A stretch of DNA of 64,000 nt from Synechococcus sp. Its GTDB lineage: Bacteria > Cyanobacteriota > Cyanobacteriia > PCC-6307 > Cyanobiaceae. This document shows, in pieces, positions 55,462-63,881 of this stretch. The stretch lies in contig JBJBEO010000001.1 of the NCBI GenBank assembly GCA_047284725.1, positions 2,040,203 to 2,104,202 of the forward strand, given 5' to 3'. Under the pieces are notes generated by a model. It made no database searches. It saw only the letters and a list, made by a program, of their open reading frames with translations, and was not told where the DNA came from. Position 1 is the first letter of the stretch, and each line of letters begins with the position of its first letter. Made by a program: the position numbers and the translations under genes.

Positions 55462-56841
55462 ATGCCCCCCCTGGCGAGACGCCATGCCATCGCCGCCTTG
55501 ATCGGTGTGCTGATCCTTTGGTTCGGTGCCGCGCCCAGCCAAGCCCTGGATCTCCCTGGCCTGCCATGGGGGACTCGTGCCACCTCTGGCAACAACAGCG
55601 CCGTGGCTGTGGAAGGACCAAACGGACGACTTCAAGAAGTGGCAGCCCCTGGAGGCGTGCAGCAACTGCGCAACGGTCTTGCTCGCCGCCAGCCCTTGGT
55701 GCAATTGCAAAGCCCGAACGACGGCAGCATCCTCGGCCCCTCCGACACCAGCCTGACGGTGTCGATCAAGGATTGGCCCCTGGTGGCCGATGACGACCTA
55801 GGCCTTGGCCCCCATCTGGCGCTCCAGATCGATGATCAGCCTCCGCTGCGGTTCACCGACTCCAGCACGACCGTCGATGGCACGGCCACCCTTGAGATTC
55901 CGCTGCCGGCCCTTTCCCCAGGCAGCCATCGCTTCACAGCGTATGCCGCTTACCCATGGGGAGAAGCGGTGAAAAGCCCTGGAGCCAGCCAGCAGTGGCG
56001 CCTGCATCAGCTACAGGCGCTGAAAGGCACCCAACCGGAACGCGATGACCCCTGGCTGGTGATGGTCAGCCCCGCTGAGCTCGGGAGCCACGAGCCGCTA
56101 CTGCTCGACTGGATGGTGTGGAACGCCCCTCTCCAGAACCTTCGCGATGGCGACGGGCGCTGGCGACTTCGACTCACCCTGAATGGCGACAGCTTCCTCG
56201 TGGATCGCCAGGAGGCGATTTGGCTCCGTCAAGGGGGCTCCAACCAACCGAGCACAATGAAGCCGAGTCTCGTGCAGATGGAACTGCTCGATGGCTTAGG
56301 CGACCCCATCAATCCCGCCTTCAACAACCAACTCAGGGCGTTGCCCCCAAGGCCTGCATCCCGCCCCATCTGGCTGCAGGCACAGCTCAGTGAGGCCAAG
56401 ATCTCCCGCCTCCTGGGCGAATCTCAGCCATCAGCCAAGCCAGCCACCGACGTCGTCGGCGCTGATGCGAGCCCACCAGAGCCCTCCTCACCCGTGGCAG
56501 CGGTTCCTCCAACCACCGAGGACACGGAGACCGACCTTGGCATCGGGCATAAAGGCAACAACGCAGCCCCCACCGACATCACCAACAGCACCAACAGCAC
56601 CAACAGCACCAACAGCACCAACAGCACCAACGGTGACGAAGCTGACCACAACGGCAACGCTCCCACCAACGGCACAGGGCTCCACGAGCCTGAGCAAGCA
56701 CAACCAACCCCACCAGAAGCGCCCGAATCCCAAGCCAAGACCCCAGCACCCCTTTTGAATGGCGAGGAACGGCTCACCCCGACCACCAGCCTGAGAGGAT
56801 CGGCCCGGGAACTGCTGAAGCCTGAGGGGCCCAAGCGCTGA
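55462..56841 (+). CDS. Conserved hypothetical exported protein with low-complexity tail
   Basis: Signal-peptide-like N-terminus, LGLGPHL, PGSH...YPWGEAVK; Pro/Thr-rich C-terminus. Confidence 0.75.
   Translation: MPPLARRHAIAALIGVLILWFGAAPSQALDLPGLPWGTRATSGNNSAVAVEGPNGRLQEVAAPGGVQQLRNGLARRQPLVQLQSPNDGSILGPSDTSLTVSIKDWPLVADDDLGLGPHLALQIDDQPPLRFTDSSTTVDGTATLEIPLPALSPGSHRFTAYAAYPWGEAVKSPGASQQWRLHQLQALKGTQPERDDPWLVMVSPAELGSHEPLLLDWMVWNAPLQNLRDGDGRWRLRLTLNGDSFLVDRQEAIWLRQGGSNQPSTMKPSLVQMELLDGLGDPINPAFNNQLRALPPRPASRPIWLQAQLSEAKISRLLGESQPSAKPATDVVGADASPPEPSSPVAAVPPTTEDTETDLGIGHKGNNAAPTDITNSTNSTNSTNSTNSTNGDEADHNGNAPTNGTGLHEPEQAQPTPPEAPESQAKTPAPLLNGEERLTPTTSLRGSARELLKPEGPKR
56581..56631 (+). repeat. 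Perfect 9-bp tandem repeat (ACCAACAGC) x5.7
   Basis: Read directly; encodes TNS repeats in frame. Confidence 0.95.
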
Positions 56842-56874: not shown

Positions 56875-58752
56875 TTGTCCCTGTTGTCTGTCTCTACCGC
56901 TGTGGCTCAACGCCCGTGTTTTGCCCTCGGGCTGTCCAGCAATGCGCTTCCACTGCTTCAACGCCTGCAGACCGCTGGCCTGGCGCAGACCATTGCACTC
57001 ACCACCAAGGCAGCGGAGACAGCTGCTGCCACCGACGTCACGCTGCTGCGAGGCTCTGCATCGGATCTCCTGCGAGAGCACTGGGAGGGGACTGTGCTGG
57101 TGGTGGGGGCCCTCGGGGCCGTCACCCGTCTGATTGCCCCCTTGATGCGGTCGAAGCGCACCGACCCGGCCGTCCTGGTGCTCGACGCTGATGGACATCT
57201 GGTGGTCCCCCTGCTGGGCGGACATCAGGCCGGAGCGGAAGCCCTGGCGCATCAACTTGCGGCGAACCTGGGAGGCCGAGCGGTTTTCACCGGCGACTGT
57301 GCCAGCCAGAAGCGGCTTGCCCTCGACGCCTTTGGCTGCGATTGGGGATGGAAGGCAAGCGGCAACGCAGAGGCCTGGAAACAACTGATGGTCTCCCAGG
57401 CCCAAGGTCATGCTCTGCAACTGACACAGGATTGCGGAACGCAGCTCTGGCAACAGAGCACAGCCGCCAAAGCCCTTGTGCTGGCGGATTCAGGCAACCG
57501 TCCCGATACAGCACAGACACCGACTCGACTGACCATCACCGCTGAGCGCAATCCAAGCCCCACCACGACCTGTTGCTGGCACCCCCCGGTGCTGTGGCTG
57601 GGCATCGGATGCGAACGCGACACAAGCCTCCAGCTGATTGAACGGGCCATTGCCACAGCTCTCCACGAAGCCGGACTCGCCAAAGAGGCCGTGGCGGGGC
57701 TGAGCACAATCGACCGCAAAGGCGACGAACCGGCCTTGCTGGCCCTGGCCAAACAGGAGGGCTGGCCGCTGCGGTTGCACGACGCTGCCAGCCTGGCCAG
57801 CGTGGATGTTCCCACCCCCTCCAGCGTGGTGGCAGCAGAAATGGGAACAGCGTCAGTGGCCGAAGCAGCGGCACTGCTTGCCTCGGGCGCGGAAGGCCGG
57901 TTACGGGTTCCCAAGCGCATCGAGCGTTCCGAAGGAAAACACGAACGGGGGGCCGCCACTGTGGCCATCGCTGAATCCCCTCTGCCGAGCGCAGCCCAGC
58001 ACGGCGAACTGCACCTGATTGGAAGTGGGCCGGGCGACCTGGCCCTTCTCACCCCCGATGCCCGTCAGGCCCTCAGTCGATGCGTGGCCTGGGTGGGCTA
58101 CGGGCTCTACCTCGATCTACTCGAACCCCTGCGCCGCGCTGACCAGGCCCGTGTCGATGGACAGCTCACGATGGAATGGGAACGCTGCGCCGAAGCGCTG
58201 CGGCTGGCCCAACAAGGCACCAAAGTGGCTTTGGTGTCGTCGGGCGACAGCGGCATTTACGCCATGGCGGGACTGGCTCTTGAACTCTGGCTCCAACAAG
58301 CGGAACACTGCCGACCGCTCTTCCATGTGCATCCCGGCATCTCAGCTTTGCAGCTAGCAGCGGCCAGAGCTGGGGCTCCACTGATGCACGATTTCTGCAC
58401 TGTGAGCCTGAGTGACCGGCTGACGCCCTGGGAGGTGATTGAACAGCGGCTGCAAGCTGCAGCAGCTGGTGACTTCGTGGTGGCCCTTTACAACCCGCGC
58501 TCCAAAGGACGCGACTGGCAACTGGCCCGAGCTGTGGAGCTACTGCGAAACGAACGCCAAGCCGCCACTCCTGTGGTGCTGGCCAGACAATTGGGACGGA
58601 GGGAAGAAACGATCAAACACACAACACTGGAGAGCCTGAATCCGTCTGATGTCGACATGCTCACCGTGGTACTGATCGGGAACAGCACCACTTATGTCAA
58701 AGACGGAAAGATGGTCACCCCTCGGGGATATCCAGGCGCCAGCCTGGGATGA
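56875..58752 (+). CDS. cobJ: CbiG-CbiH fusion, precorrin-3B C17-methyltransferase
   Basis: DPAVLVLD...LLGGHQAGA, GIGCER, SVAEAAA (CbiG); GSGPG, SSGDSGIY, SLSDRLTPW, YNPRS, TPRGY (CbiH). Confidence 0.93.
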   Translation: MSLLSVSTAVAQRPCFALGLSSNALPLLQRLQTAGLAQTIALTTKAAETAAATDVTLLRGSASDLLREHWEGTVLVVGALGAVTRLIAPLMRSKRTDPAVLVLDADGHLVVPLLGGHQAGAEALAHQLAANLGGRAVFTGDCASQKRLALDAFGCDWGWKASGNAEAWKQLMVSQAQGHALQLTQDCGTQLWQQSTAAKALVLADSGNRPDTAQTPTRLTITAERNPSPTTTCCWHPPVLWLGIGCERDTSLQLIERAIATALHEAGLAKEAVAGLSTIDRKGDEPALLALAKQEGWPLRLHDAASLASVDVPTPSSVVAAEMGTASVAEAAALLASGAEGRLRVPKRIERSEGKHERGAATVAIAESPLPSAAQHGELHLIGSGPGDLALLTPDARQALSRCVAWVGYGLYLDLLEPLRRADQARVDGQLTMEWERCAEALRLAQQGTKVALVSSGDSGIYAMAGLALELWLQQAEHCRPLFHVHPGISALQLAAARAGAPLMHDFCTVSLSDRLTPWEVIEQRLQAAAAGDFVVALYNPRSKGRDWQLARAVELLRNERQAATPVVLARQLGRREETIKHTTLESLNPSDVDMLTVVLIGNSTTYVKDGKMVTPRGYPGASLG

Positions 58753-58904: not shown

Positions 58905-60383
58905 TCAACGCGTCAACTTTCTGATCATGCGATGAACAATTCGACCTGGGTGCAATGACCAGAAAGACGTCTCTTGTCCTTTCTGATTGATCGGATCCGC
59001 CAAGGATTTTTGAGTAGAAAACAATCCCAAAACGGCCTCAAAGGACAGAGGGCGATAAAAATAAAAGCCTTGAGCTAAGAGAACACCCATGTCTTTGGCG
59101 AATGACAGCTGAGCCGATGTCTCGATCCCCTCTGCAACAACCTTCATACCGCTTTGAACCAGCGACGCAACAATACCCTTCAGAATCAGCTCCTTCTGAG
59201 CATCAAGCTCACCCGCAAAAGCGACAAAAAAACGATCCAGTTTAACCGTATTAATATCGGTTTCCAAGAGACGCTTCAAAGAGGAATAACCGATCCCAAA
59301 ATCGTCAATGGCAACGACAGCCCCCAAGCCTTTAAGCCGTGCAATAAATTCATCCATGTCTGCATTGGAAATTGTCACCTCTTGCTCAAGAATTTCAAAT
59401 TGAAACGATATATCAGGACACGTCGAAGCGACTCGAGAAACTGAATCAATGATTTTCTCCCTTGCCACAGGCGAGTTAAACGTTGCTCCGGAAATATTAA
59501 TACTGAAAACAAAATGTTTTAAATTAATGGAGTTTTTCATTACAAGCAGATCAGAGACTCCTCTTTCGAGAACGGTAAGATCAAACGTCTCAACCAACGC
59601 GTACTTCTGAAAGACCGGCAGAAACCTATTTGGAGAGTGCAAAACGCCATTAGCCTTGATGCGCGCTAACACCTCAAAACCGACAATCTGATTCGTTTGC
59701 AAATTGACGATCGGCTGGTAATGGGGCTCAACAAGGGAACGAGACAACTGATCAATGAATATTTTTTCAAAGTCGGCTTCGACATCAGGCTCTATCAAGG
59801 AATGAATTCCTTGAGCACTGAAAGAAGAAACAAGATAGCGATGGCCAAAATCTTTTTTAAACTCTTGATCACTACTCAAGAGCGCGTCCATCAGTAAAAT
59901 CGGATTGGATGGAAATCTCGCCAGATCCGCATCATAAAGCCCAAGAACATCAAGCTTAAGCAAGATATCTGAGCCACCAGAACCAAGATCATCGCCCGAG
60001 GAGGTGAGATCGCGATTTGAATTAATTTTGATACACTCTAACGAGGAATCTACAAGGTCCTCAAGGAGCCTTGAAGTATTGACGGGTCCAATATCCCTCA
60101 GCTGTTGGATTAAGACCAAAAAATCAGAACCATTAATATCATAAAACTTACTTCTCTTAGGAAGAACTCCTATCAACAAACGCAGGAAATTGGCTTTTTT
60201 CCGAACACTTGCTTCGGACTCAGTTTTCCCTTCACCCAAGCGACCGAGCAACCTGTAATGAATATAGATATAATTGATATTGAAATCTTGACTAATCAGG
60301 CAATCTTCTGCAAAAGCTAGGCTCGTATAGTCAATTTCTTGACTCTCGCAATAAGACGCAAGCCAATCTAGAGAATAAATCAT
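58905..60383 (-). CDS. EAL c-di-GMP phosphodiesterase with degenerate N-terminal GGDEF-like region
   Basis: YQPIV, FEVLAR, SINIS, FEILE, IDDFGIGYSSL, KLDR, AEGIE, AQGFYF; start ATG 60383 chosen to avoid overlapping the cyclase. Confidence 0.9.
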   Translation of the reverse strand: MIYSLDWLASYCESQEIDYTSLAFAEDCLISQDFNINYIYIHYRLLGRLGEGKTESEASVRKKANFLRLLIGVLPKRSKFYDINGSDFLVLIQQLRDIGPVNTSRLLEDLVDSSLECIKINSNRDLTSSGDDLGSGGSDILLKLDVLGLYDADLARFPSNPILLMDALLSSDQEFKKDFGHRYLVSSFSAQGIHSLIEPDVEADFEKIFIDQLSRSLVEPHYQPIVNLQTNQIVGFEVLARIKANGVLHSPNRFLPVFQKYALVETFDLTVLERGVSDLLVMKNSINLKHFVFSINISGATFNSPVAREKIIDSVSRVASTCPDISFQFEILEQEVTISNADMDEFIARLKGLGAVVAIDDFGIGYSSLKRLLETDINTVKLDRFFVAFAGELDAQKELILKGIVASLVQSGMKVVAEGIETSAQLSFAKDMGVLLAQGFYFYRPLSFEAVLGLFSTQKSLADPINQKGQETSFWSLHPGRIVHRMIRKLTR

Positions 60384-60390
60384 TTTAGCA

Positions 60391-61572
60391 TCAAGCACCA
60401 GTGACCTTGTTTTTACCTTTGAACTTACTTTTATACAAGAACTCATCAGCGCTGCGCATCAGCACCTCGAGACTGTAACCTGACTTAGACGTACTCGAAA
60501 AACCGGCACTAATCGTGATACGGACTGGCTGATCGCTCTTATTAAAGTGGTACATCTCAATCTGATGCCTTAAACGATTCAGCAAATTAACCGCATCCTT
60601 AGCAGTCGCTCTATATAAGATGGCAAATTCCTCTCCGCCATAGCGCGATGAGCAATCAAAATAATCCCTTGTATTACTTTTAATGATAGCACCAACCTCG
60701 GAGAGAACAACATCTCCAACACCATGGCCATAGGTGTCATTGATTCTCTTGAAGTCGTCAATATCTAAAATACAAAGACAAAAATGGTCACTCGCTTCTT
60801 GAGCCCGTAAAAGCTTTAACTTGCAAATCTCAACGAAAAGCTTTCGATCCATAAGTTGAGTCAAGCCGTCAGTTTGAAGACCTGTAAAAAGAGAAGGGAG
60901 AATCTTATAGTTGAAAAACAGATAAATTGGGAGGTAAGCAAAGAATAGTGCTACAACAGCGATGGCAAACTCAAGGAAGAATTGATTAGACAAACCATCG
61001 TAAAATCCGCTCATTGAATACGTGTAGGCAAGCGTGTATCTATCAGGCTTGCTTTGGCCTTGTCTTAGCATTTGCCTCGGCACAATCTCTCGAGAAAAAG
61101 TGACGAACTTTCCAAGCTTGTTATGATTATTTAATTCAGCCTGTGTGCATCGACGAGCCTCAAAACAAGAGGCAAGCCTTCGAAACTGTGCATTGCTTAG
61201 CTGAGGAACCAGCAATGATTGGGAGTAAATTGGTTGATTGAGCCATAAAGGGACCGACGAATAAACAATTGTACCGTCAGCATCAGCGACAATGATTGAT
61301 GTATGATCACTAAATAACAATTTCTTGTCACGTTTTGCCAGCAAAATATGGGCATCTATGTGCGAAGCCAAAGAGGAGAGTGAATGGCCTGAATCCAGGT
61401 GACTTTCCACAAGACTTACATACTCATTGGCCTTTGAATTTTGATCTTTAACTTCAGATTCAAATGCATCCATGGTTTGATATATAGCCGCAAGCAAACT
61501 TATAAACAGTGTTGAACACGCAAAGAAGATCTTTGATTGCTTTTGAATTCTACGCTTGGTAGGCCTCCTCAT
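60391..61572 (-). CDS. Membrane-bound diguanylate cyclase with extracytoplasmic sensor domain
   Basis: Two TM segments; TDGLTQL, DIDDFKRINDTYGHGVGD, RYGGEEF (60625-60639), TISAG, ADEFLYKSK..GKN. Confidence 0.92.
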   Translation of the reverse strand: MRRPTKRRIQKQSKIFFACSTLFISLLAAIYQTMDAFESEVKDQNSKANEYVSLVESHLDSGHSLSSLASHIDAHILLAKRDKKLLFSDHTSIIVADADGTIVYSSVPLWLNQPIYSQSLLVPQLSNAQFRRLASCFEARRCTQAELNNHNKLGKFVTFSREIVPRQMLRQGQSKPDRYTLAYTYSMSGFYDGLSNQFFLEFAIAVVALFFAYLPIYLFFNYKILPSLFTGLQTDGLTQLMDRKLFVEICKLKLLRAQEASDHFCLCILDIDDFKRINDTYGHGVGDVVLSEVGAIIKSNTRDYFDCSSRYGGEEFAILYRATAKDAVNLLNRLRHQIEMYHFNKSDQPVRITISAGFSSTSKSGYSLEVLMRSADEFLYKSKFKGKNKVTGA

Positions 61573-61576
61573 TGGT

Positions 61577-62728
61577 TCACGAGTCAGCTAAAGATTGATT
61601 GGCCAAATAATAGGAGAGCTTCGTTCTACTTGAATTAGAAAAGATCGGAATTAACACAAGATTGTTTTTGAATTGAGTTCCGTCGGATCGGTAGTTAGTT
61701 ATGACGCACTGGAACCTTTTTCCTTTGGCAATGGCATCCTTGATTTCCGCCTTAATAGATACTTCAGTGTCAGGACCTTGCAAAAATCTACAATTTTTTC
61801 CCAATACAAACTCACGGGTGTAACCAGTGAGCTCAGTAAAAGCCTGGTTGGCGTAGATTGTAGGTTGGCCATCGGCCGTCATATCAGATATCGTGATACC
61901 AACGGATGATCTCTCAATAGCTTCTTTGAAAATCTCGGAATCGTCCAATATTTTTGTGACATCAGAGATGTTTTTAATTTCATCATCAAGGCTATGCTTC
62001 AAGTTTCTTATAATATTATTGTTTTTGATGTATACATTGCGCGAATAGAATAAACCTACAATGCCAACAACTGATGACATCAAGGCCGTGTAGTAAATTG
62101 GATTCATATATTCAACCTCTAAAGACTCCAAGCTCTTAACGCTCACCTCTTGTATACCTCGAAGATCACCAACCTTCCAATTTTTCTTGGGAGAATCAGG
62201 ATGAGCATTATGACAGGTGACACACGACTCTTTCATTCTCACAGGCGTTGCAAGCCTGAAAATTTCGTCTTGACCTATTTGACTGTACTTTTCGTAAAAT
62301 CGAAGCGTTGGATCCTTTTCAAAAACTTGAATGGAGTCTTGCTGAAAAGCATCGAGAGCTCTTTCCTCTTTACGGTTATTAAAAGGATATTTAGACGTAA
62401 AGGCATAATTGATTCTTCCATCTGAGTGTGTGGCATCAAAAATAGCGCCCAACTCGATGGAAAGCGTTGCAGGAATTGGAATCCCGCCCTTGAAGTCATG
62501 GTAGCGCTCAGAAAGCACAACTTTTCCCTCACCCTCTTGAACATTAGAGACGATATTTTGTGAATAATAGGCCCTGATATTGTCGACCAAAGAAGCAATC
62601 TCTACTGCCTCATTTTTCATTCTGGTTTTCGCTGCATCACGAAGACCAGTCGTAAACAGTAAAGGCAAAAGCAATCCCAAAAGAATTGAAGCAGCCAGAA
62701 AAATATTGAGAACTCGTTTAGCGCGCAC
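61577..62728 (-). CDS. DUF3365/Tll0287-like c-type heme domain plus LOV domain membrane sensor
   Basis: TM; PIPAT; ATPVRMKESCVTCH..HP...WKVGDLRG; TM; LOV with YANQAFTELTGY, GKNCRFLQGP, NYRSDG, N, Q. Confidence 0.88.
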   Translation of the reverse strand: MRAKRVLNIFLAASILLGLLLPLLFTTGLRDAAKTRMKNEAVEIASLVDNIRAYYSQNIVSNVQEGEGKVVLSERYHDFKGGIPIPATLSIELGAIFDATHSDGRINYAFTSKYPFNNRKEERALDAFQQDSIQVFEKDPTLRFYEKYSQIGQDEIFRLATPVRMKESCVTCHNAHPDSPKKNWKVGDLRGIQEVSVKSLESLEVEYMNPIYYTALMSSVVGIVGLFYSRNVYIKNNNIIRNLKHSLDDEIKNISDVTKILDDSEIFKEAIERSSVGITISDMTADGQPTIYANQAFTELTGYTREFVLGKNCRFLQGPDTEVSIKAEIKDAIAKGKRFQCVITNYRSDGTQFKNNLVLIPIFSNSSRTKLSYYLANQSLADS

Positions 62729-63807
62729 TGGAGCCTAGATGCTCTCTTTATGCTAGTAACGATTGACGCAAAAGACAAGGACAAGCAGGGAGCTTGCTCG
62801 TCTCTTCATATCCTTAGGAGACTAACAGCGCAGCGCTCATCGATTGATTGCATTGCGTACCGATCAAGCCAACCGACCTACCCTCCGGGCTGTATTTTCT
62901 TCAGCAACCTTGATTCAAGGGGGAAAAGGCATCAAGCAAAGGACAATCCTGATCGATTAATTCATCTTCCGAAAAGAATGATGCAATAACTGTTGTGTAT
63001 AAGAGAAAAAATATGTGCGATTCTTCGATCCATTCTGGGTCCACTCCTCGATCAATAGAGCCACCGGACATGGTCTTTCCATACCCAATAAGTGCCTAGA
63101 AACCGATCGCGGTCCAAGGATCATGCTGAAGACAAAAACTCTCATGCTGCCATCCACTAAATCCTAGAACTACCCGGCAATCACAACATTGATGTGCCAA
63201 GAGCATGAAGAAATCCAGTCACAATCGGATGATCTACCTCACAAGAGCCGCAACACAATGAGGCGAAGAACTCCTCATTGCGCACCATCGACTGACGTCA
63301 ACCAGCCATTGGAAGCTGGAAGGAAATCGCAGGAGTGGGCATGGCATTCTGCCTAAAACAGGCAGAACATTTCCGTCTCTTCAATCATTTGCCCGTCAAA
63401 AACTCTCATGGTTTGACCCACACTTTTCAGATGACCGACACATATAAAAATCGAAGGACAGTTTCCAGTGGGCTTTTCCAAAAGCCAATGCCAGCAATGA
63501 ATAAGCTTCTTTTCCAGGGTGCCCGCACTATCCAACCACTGCCAATCAATGAAGACATAGCACCATGATCCCTGCCTGGCGAGCATCCAAGTGATCCACA
63601 GGATCAATCACCATTGTGGCGACATCAACAGGACAAAGCATTCGCTTCAGCGATGCACGCCATGGCTGAAAACCAAAACCCATCCCCCTGTTTGGGCACT
63701 GGGCCAGTCCCCTTGTCGCTGGTGCCAGGCAATCTTTCAAGCGATCACGTGCCCACAAACGGGGCACTGCAACGCAGCAGCAACAGAGAATCTTGATGGA
63801 GATTGAG

Positions 63808-63881
63808 TCGGGATGACAGGATTCGAACCTGCGGCCCCTTCGTCCCGAACGAAGTGCGCTACCAAGCTGCGCTACATCCCG
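63808..63881 (-). tRNA. tRNA-Pro(CGG)
   Basis: Reverse complement CGGGATGTAGCGCAGCTTGGTAGCGCACTTCGTTCGGGACGAAGGGGCCGCAGGTTCGAATCCTGTCATCCCGA. Confidence 0.97.

Follow-up and report, generated by a model that had tools for sequence, protein, structure and literature searches.

The 64,000-nucleotide window analysed here, a stretch of contig JBJBEO010000001.1 of Synechococcus sp., contains a minus-strand operon that encodes a haem-plus-LOV membrane sensor, a diguanylate cyclase and an EAL phosphodiesterase, the latter two being enzymes of cyclic di-GMP (c-di-GMP) turnover. The open reading frames (ORFs) lie at 62728–61577 (gene 1, 383 residues, GTG start), 61572–60391 (gene 2, 393 residues) and 60383–58905 (gene 3, 492 residues). 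Their coordinates bear out the co-oriented arrangement reported in a first-pass annotation of this DNA, with 4 nucleotides (nt) between genes 1 and 2 and 7 nt between genes 2 and 3. An upstream ATG at 60446 would extend gene 3 to 513 residues, but the shorter form was favoured because two relatives with 76–77% identity are exactly 492 residues long. Pfam assigned PF11845 (Tll0287-like; E = 3.2e-22, 80 bits against a cut-off of 24.1) and PAS_9 to gene 1, GGDEF (E = 1e-37) to gene 2 and EAL (E = 6e-52) to gene 3. A single sensor–GGDEF gene split by a frameshift was ruled out, since gene 2 has two membrane helices and a periplasmic domain of its own and the same split is found in 42 of 42 loci. 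The operon is real and conserved, and it is apparently undescribed. The host is a picocyanobacterium, and psaA and psaB are present in the window.

Architecture of the three proteins

Gene 1 (61577–62728, minus strand) is predicted from Pfam, sequence features and a structural model (pLDDT 82) to comprise a first transmembrane helix (TM1), a periplasmic sCache_heme domain (DUF3365/Tll0287; residues 32–197, 62138–62635), a second transmembrane helix (TM2), a coiled coil and a LOV domain (approximately residues 265–378, 61595–61936). TM1 has a hydropathy of 2.5, and TM2 is weaker, 1.47 versus a family median of 1.82; it runs into a long helix (residues 203–272) that leads to the LOV domain, without a Pfam match to HAMP. 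The domain with the CXXCH motif that marks sCache_heme, here CVTCH (62224–62210), sits between the two membrane helices, and the cysteines of this motif are its only ones, with no distal Cys. Residues C169, C172, H173, M37, M165 and H176 are kept in all 33 operon members. R105 is invariant and D126 nearly invariant, resembling the basic β1 and acidic α3 marks of sCache_heme Cluster 2, the published numbering of which could not be mapped onto the sensor. A sequence search among solved structures found no relative of the haem domain from which to assign the distal haem ligand.

LOV domains use a photoactive Cys, two flavin-binding Asn residues and a signalling Gln. The LOV signature of gene 1 is complete (N312, C313 within GKNCRFLQG, R314, Q317, N345, N355 and Q378), and C313, N345, N355 and Q378 are conserved in 33 of 33 operon members, while position 317 varies (Q in 22, R in nine, H in two). 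N377, directly before the LOV Gln, is invariant, family-specific and unusual. The model of this domain superposes on solved LOV domains, including Brucella LOV, with a root-mean-square deviation (rmsd) of 1.1–1.2 Å; the top NCBIfam matches, none of which reaches its whole-protein cut-off, come from the LOV portions of YtvA and of blue-light kinases. No other NCRFLQ-type motif occurs in the host genome. The protein stops 5 residues past the LOV Gln and has no output domain, and relatives with 85% and 52% identity end in the same place, in line with the earlier description of a sensor without output. Judged by these motifs, gene 1 probably carries haem c, may bind nitric oxide (NO) and may undergo blue-light photochemistry.

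In gene 2 (60391–61572, minus strand), Pfam, modelling and hydropathy delineate a transmembrane helix, a Cache-like periplasmic domain, a second transmembrane helix and a GGDEF domain starting approximately 10 residues past the latter. Diguanylate cyclases depend on GG(D/E)EF and on metal- and guanine-binding Asp and Asn residues; here D270, N278, D287 and G312–F316 are intact, with GGEEF at 60639–60625. The I-site, RDYFD (RxxxD), is one residue longer than the canonical RxxD, the spacing found in 31 of 33 family members. The periplasmic domain has a conserved Cys pair (C136/C142) and no Pfam match, and its model gave a best Foldseek E value of 0.008. VIA returned only Cache sensors as the top five matches, among them PctD (Z 9.8, moderate; rmsd 3.4, 138 aligned residues) and WalK (Z 8.9), so that a Cache domain is the likely assignment for the modelled part. 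This input domain belongs to a small family, with 32 representatives among 1.84 billion sequences.

Gene 3 (58905–60383, minus strand) comprises, according to Pfam and the family alignment, a degenerate GGDEF domain, an EAL domain and a basic tail. EAL phosphodiesterases share seven catalytic residues and a DDFG(T/I)GYSS loop; in the EAL domain of gene 3 (59750–59049) E237, N296, E330, D360, K381, E418 and Q438 are intact, as in 33 of 33 members. The N-terminal half aligns with the degenerate GGDEF of relatives and is strongly degenerate here, and the GAF domain found in most relatives is missing from the window copy. The protein ends in an Arg/Lys-rich amphipathic tail (58949–58908). Such a basic tail, with a net charge of +4 or more in 15 residues, is present in 30 of 33 family EAL proteins versus none of eight other EAL proteins scored in the host, and it may target the protein to the membrane. 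The earlier identification of a GGEEF cyclase and an EAL enzyme is thus confirmed, with intact catalytic residues in both; that account was incomplete in that it missed the Cache-like input of the cyclase, the dead GGDEF of gene 3 and the likely kinase origin of the sensor.

Gene order, co-inheritance and origin of the sensor

The sensor had matches in 23 of 300 genomes of the family, in 19 of them over its full length (at 23 places) and in four in the haem domain only. Of the 23 full-length places, 20 were analysed with the window proteins as sole queries: the cyclase gene was next to the sensor gene in 20 of 20, and the EAL gene came third in the same orientation in 18 of 20. The other three places comprised two triads and, where a contig ends, a single pair. 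At the sensor–cyclase junction the genes overlap at start and stop or are separated by 10 nt or less in 19 of 20 loci. Loci were also collected from genome and metagenome scans, each represented by the best 80 of about 550–600 candidates. The 72 haem-plus-LOV frames were reduced to 54 at 97% identity, from which seven kinase fusions, two betaproteobacterial forms without the LOV Cys and three frames cut by contig ends were set aside. In this non-redundant set of output-less, LOV-intact sensors, window included, a cyclase of the same family was next in 42 of 42 loci and the EAL gene was third in 36 of the 38 with room for it. The count obtained with the window proteins only is the non-circular one, since the profiles behind the wider count were built partly from the counted loci. 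In the reverse direction, the N-terminal part of the cyclase had 27 strong non-self matches, 22 of which adjoin a sensor. The triad therefore recurs widely, whereas a failure of the genes to co-occur elsewhere had been named in the first-pass annotation as grounds for rejecting a joint function.

The pairwise distance matrices of the three genes in 33 complete triads correlate with rho of 0.89–0.93, and the trees are largely congruent. Catalytic residues are kept in 33 of 33 EAL proteins and in nearly all GGDEF domains. The window proteins share 23–45% identity with other family members, and the window copy forms the longest branch in each of the three gene trees. At the level of genome comparison, these data show that the gene order is fixed and that the triad is inherited as a block. 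Carriers known by name and in culture include strains of Cyanobium and Vulcanococcus. Two loci (L060 and L062) have sensor and cyclase without an EAL gene. The EAL gene is split in L065 and the cyclase gene in L196, and a gap of approximately 1 kb precedes the EAL gene in L052 and L072. Triads were also found in records titled Bradyrhizobium and Chitinophaga (L090 and L094), titles that are doubtful, as the tree places L094 within picocyanobacterial sequences. Stand-alone cyclase genes occur in five genomes (L167–L171); inspected by eye, those of L167 and L171 adjoin genes for circularly permuted ATP-grasp, alpha-E and transglutaminase-like proteins.

Most relatives of the sensor continue for 80–105 residues beyond the LOV domain, in two helices. 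In Comamonadaceae and metagenome contigs (L086, L089, L197 and L198) the haem–stalk–LOV unit is fused to HisKA and HATPase, and the sensor is co-linear with these haem-LOV kinases over 382 columns. A profile of 38 tails aligned with the dimerization and histidine phosphotransfer (DHp) hairpin of seven haem-LOV kinases over 65 columns, just past the H-box (score 27.3, probability 46%, E = 2e-4). Controls scored lower: a reversed profile, column-shuffled profiles (maximum 15.2 in 100 runs), heptad-shuffled profiles (maximum 19.4 in 100 runs) and natural helical profiles (7–12). In a quick tree of the sensors, subject to long branches and compositional bias, 25 cyanobacterial output-less rows group together (SH-aLRT support 90), and the nearest to this group are three kinase-fused rows, with weak support. 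Because the tail resembles the DHp of haem-LOV histidine kinases, the sensor looks like a decapitated kinase: it probably descends from a histidine kinase through loss of the catalytic domain and the phospho-His, the remnant being lost again in some lines. Macromonas nakdongensis (L089:5406-9405) has two tandem sCache_heme-LOV histidine kinase genes.

The tail-less end of the window copy is shared by sensors with 97%, 85%, 52% and approximately 40% identity to it, and a one-off truncation is ruled out by these relatives. The streamlined forms of all three proteins have counterparts: a sensor of 383 residues at 85% identity, a cyclase of 394 residues at 79% and another at 41%, and GAF-less EAL proteins of 492 residues at 76–77%. 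One sensor/cyclase pair on equal-sized contigs suggests that the genes of the tail-less relatives adjoin each other. To judge by these relatives, the tail-less form is a maintained lineage and not an accident. In two betaproteobacterial loci (L093:1365-4470 and L095:5932-9022) an output-less haem sensor whose LOV domain has lost the Cys (GRPLRFL) is directly followed by a membrane hybrid histidine kinase, by gene content the same design with another output.

Insertion site and host c-di-GMP network

The operon sits in a 5,054-nt stretch between a cbiG-cobJ-type core gene (56875–58752, plus strand), which converges on it and forms the left border, and tRNA-Pro(CGG) (63807–63881, minus strand) at the right border. 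The guanine-plus-cytosine (GC) content of its genes is 0.40–0.43 (0.40–0.42 at third positions) versus 0.594 for the genome, and neighbouring core genes have third-position values of 0.68–0.75. In 40 of 45 congeners the cobJ and tRNA-Pro markers are 250 nt or less apart, the other five being fragmentary assemblies, and a family profile search of all 45 recovered two LOV-only matches and no sensor. The low GC content and the empty site agree with the earlier proposal of an import, and on this comparative evidence the operon is shown to be a recent insertion at the tRNA-Pro site. Besides the three genes the insert has no other long ORF, and no integrase-sized ORF was found in it. The 1,078-nt spacer upstream of the operon (62729–63806, GC 0.48) is single copy in the genome and presumably contains the promoter; promoter-like and terminator-like sites number six (8.3 expected) and four (4.9 expected), respectively, neither count being above chance. 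A search for an attachment-site duplication around the insert found no clear one and nothing above chance. The plasmid search returned just seven distant rhizobial matches of 28–30% identity that end before the end of the LOV domain. Reads of three small-share runs from one study (probably DNA) gave scattered short contigs only.

The first-pass annotation had called the system self-contained, a view that we abandon because the 2.58-Mb host genome has a large c-di-GMP network: 23 GGDEF matches, of which 22 exceed the cut-off, together with 10 EAL and four PilZ matches. The GGDEF and EAL genes are mostly of low GC content and often clustered (e.g. C1:1833772-1840484, 2372219-2384095 and 2500934-2510394). 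The 45 congeners have 0–6 GGDEF matches each, with none at all in 32 of them; by these counts the host is an outlier that has hoarded c-di-GMP genes. The accessible parts of reviews describe most marine Synechococcus and all Prochlorococcus as devoid of c-di-GMP enzymes, and photoreceptors as rare. On the congener counts, the scarcity of these domains asserted earlier holds for the genus and fails for the host genome. The effector search proposed at the same time yielded the four PilZ-type proteins; searches of the host for the ComFB and MshEN families came back empty. One GGDEF gene of the third cluster (G000:C1:2509172-2510394) is split in two, and stops interrupt the second match.

Candidate mechanism and competing explanations

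The haem domain, stalk and LOV domain of gene 1 are the same as in the sCache_heme-LOV histidine kinases; these continue into HisKA and HATPase, whereas the cyanobacterial sensors have a DHp-like hairpin as their last part or finish immediately behind the LOV domain. Control of a membrane cyclase by a separately encoded, periplasm-facing regulator is also a feature of YfiBNR, in which, unlike gene 1, the regulator YfiR is soluble, acts as an inhibitor in the periplasm and has neither cofactors nor a cytoplasmic part. For the published systems that follow, the comparison covers the accessible parts of the sources (PMC3747582, PMC4284465, PMC8846402, PMC10124867 and 10.64898/2026.02.07.704614, in addition to those cited below). 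One of the two nearest precedents is the output-less Cache_heme-HAMP (CHH) receptor of Pseudomonas azotoformans, which binds the Ser/Thr kinase of its operon and responds to NO (10.64898/2026.05.25.727664). It shares with gene 1 a periplasmic CXXCH Cache domain, a membrane anchor, the lack of enzymatic output and a partner enzyme gene next door. In contrast, gene 1 has a LOV domain in place of HAMP, which would add light as a second input, and the enzymes encoded beside it are a membrane-bound cyclase and a phosphodiesterase, not a PknB-like Ser/Thr kinase. The terms LOV, cyanobacter-, GGDEF and diguanylate are absent from the main text of that report. The work that defined sCache_heme describes a signalling member that releases NO slowly and an NO-binding representative without the distal Cys (10.64898/2026.02.01.703092). 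Gene 1 resembles its signalling Cluster 2 in combining PF11845 and CXXCH with a membrane anchor, a cytoplasmic signalling part and no distal Cys. The fusions listed for Cluster 2 are HAMP, PAS, MCP, kinase, GGDEF/EAL and guanylate cyclase, whereas the cytoplasmic part of gene 1 is LOV only; the accessible text has no match to LOV, Cyanobium or operon and does not mention this architecture. The supplements of an earlier version of that work (PMC12889525) include Cyanobium entries, those shown having 87–312 residues, and the rows shown do not describe it.

The other near precedent is that of haem sensors of the H-NOX/NosP type, which regulate partner c-di-GMP enzymes, as in Legionella Hnox1-Lpg1057 and Shewanella woodyi H-NOX-SwDGC (PMC8846402). 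The likeness lies in an output-less haem sensor and a separately encoded c-di-GMP enzyme, which in the present operon are connected by genetic linkage only; H-NOX and NosP are soluble, contain b-type haem and have no photoreceptor, unlike gene 1, a membrane protein with its predicted c-type haem outside the cell membrane. Canonical LOV domains are tied to c-di-GMP turnover in LOV-GGDEF(-EAL) enzymes such as Synechococcus elongatus SL2 and LadC (PDB 8c05), where the LOV domain is fused in cis via a linker helix instead of ending the protein. A co-transcribed cyclase/phosphodiesterase pair under haem control is a feature of Escherichia coli DosC/DosP (dgcO-pdeO), each of which, unlike genes 2 and 3, carries its own haem domain. 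The operon is thus a variant of the known scheme of an output-less sensor with a neighbouring enzyme, and what sets it apart is the combination of periplasmic haem c and LOV in one receptor. No description of the receptor or the operon was found in the literature searched, which left most subscription papers outside.

Because the LOV domain ends the protein, gene 1 must act in trans, and because the trio travels together through many related cyanobacteria, the sensor probably steers the enzymes; from these arguments we infer regulation in trans. Our leading interpretation, to which we give an even chance, is that of a conserved picocyanobacterial three-gene c-di-GMP module in which the sensor regulates the adjacent cyclase in trans and the phosphodiesterase acts locally. 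Gene 1 would be a dimeric receptor with two inputs acting on one coiled-coil stalk: a periplasmic c-type haem without a distal Cys, which would bind NO or report redox state, and a cytoplasmic LOV domain with flavin mononucleotide, which would respond to blue light. Having no kinase output, the receptor would pass its signal to the membrane cyclase, the GGDEF domain of which would sit next to the stalk, some 10 residues beneath the membrane. The basic tail would draw the EAL protein to the membrane and let this enzyme reset c-di-GMP locally, and the dead GGDEF domain of gene 3 (also GAF in relatives) may serve docking or allostery. The output would enter the larger network of the host, which includes four proteins of the PilZ type, and would probably control aggregation or attachment. 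If true, this arrangement would widen the reach of trans-acting sCache_heme receptors beyond kinases to include c-di-GMP enzymes, and it would offer a concrete way into the question of how picocyanobacteria may come to aggregate or attach. The LOV domain would also stand mid-way along a transmembrane signalling route while being the last domain of its protein, an arrangement that could be useful for optogenetic design. A fuller version, in which an ex-kinase, two-sided receptor (NO or redox outside, blue light inside) was rewired in trans to a cyclase and a tethered phosphodiesterase as a light-and-NO gate of c-di-GMP, is offered tentatively and is rather unlikely to hold in every part; if it did, the pairing of receptor and enzyme would be modular, the same output-less haem receptor being coupled to different membrane enzymes across phyla.

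Several points weigh against control of the cyclase by the sensor. The cyclase carries its own Cache-like input domain, and co-inheritance, expected of any operon, is no proof of contact. Five of the 27 cyclase matches are sensor-less, all in one other genus and in 99%-complete genomes. Three distant members of the cyclase family (P0156, P0158 and P0166) have a fully degenerate GGDEF signature and are possibly receptors rather than enzymes. The host has 22 further GGDEF matches and therefore other possible partners for the sensor. The helical tail, which would be the first choice for a docking element, is missing from the window lineage, and so are the cyclase C-terminal extension and GAF; haem loading, NO binding and photochemistry are all read from motifs. 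Complex prediction with full-length sensor and cyclase, both supplied as alignments and with controls not folded, scored 0.01 and speaks neither for nor against contact.

The partner of the sensor might instead be the phosphodiesterase, the LOV domain (with the tail, where present) docking on the dead GGDEF or the EAL of gene 3 while the cyclase obeys its own Cache-like domain. Such a partnership would parallel the CHH system, in which a cytoplasmic protein, a soluble kinase, is bound below the membrane (10.64898/2026.05.25.727664), and SL2, a light-activated cyanobacterial phosphodiesterase. It would also suit the conservation of the dead GGDEF sequence across the family, a basic tail that could bring gene 3 to the membrane, and the joint absence of sensor tail and GAF from the window lineage. 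However, L060 and L062 have no EAL gene, yet no informative locus lacks the cyclase, and we regard this alternative as unlikely. An unlikely explanation, too, is a co-regulated and co-transferred cassette without dedicated contact, in which the sensor signals to some other protein, be it a host kinase or a different cyclase, and the enzymes use their own inputs. The stand-alone homologues of the cyclase, the many other c-di-GMP enzymes of the host and a seemingly kinase-derived sensor, for which a kinase partner is conceivable, are in its favour; a sensor with an outside partner would, however, be free to separate, and no informative sensor without a cyclase was seen in 42 loci from several genera, to which the window proteins are 23–45% identical.

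The wiring could be the same and the input different, with redox or oxygen sensed on both sides, by haem c outside and flavin inside. Stand-alone sCache_heme proteins do act as redox proteins (10.64898/2026.02.01.703092), the invariant M37, M165 and H176 could occupy the distal haem site, and two betaproteobacterial relatives have lost the photoactive Cys; the invariant Asn before the LOV Gln is unusual and Q317 is variable. The retention of C313, N345, N355 and Q378 in all 33 members and the absence of the distal Cys of Tll0287-type proteins nevertheless make this version improbable. A decaying relic of truncated genes carried in at the tRNA site is hardly credible: the copy has the longest branch in all three trees, has lost tail and GAF, and shows an altered I-site spacing and a weak TM2, but all frames are open, all catalytic residues are kept, and relatives have the same lengths and ends (sensor 85% and 52%, cyclase 79% and 41%, EAL 76–77%).

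The host has a second sCache_heme gene (C1:2365520-2366443, minus strand; L017:1228-2151), which encodes 307 residues with CLACH, a membrane helix and no output domain. By eye its end is HAMP-like, and it resembles the CHH receptor. Its neighbourhood showed no recognisable partner of kinase size, and the gene converges on an ORF of 385 residues that looks, also by eye, like a ligand-gated ion channel. Elsewhere in the window, 55462–56841 (plus strand) encodes an exported-looking protein of 459 residues that has no Pfam match and contains a short tandem NST repeat near 56500–56560.

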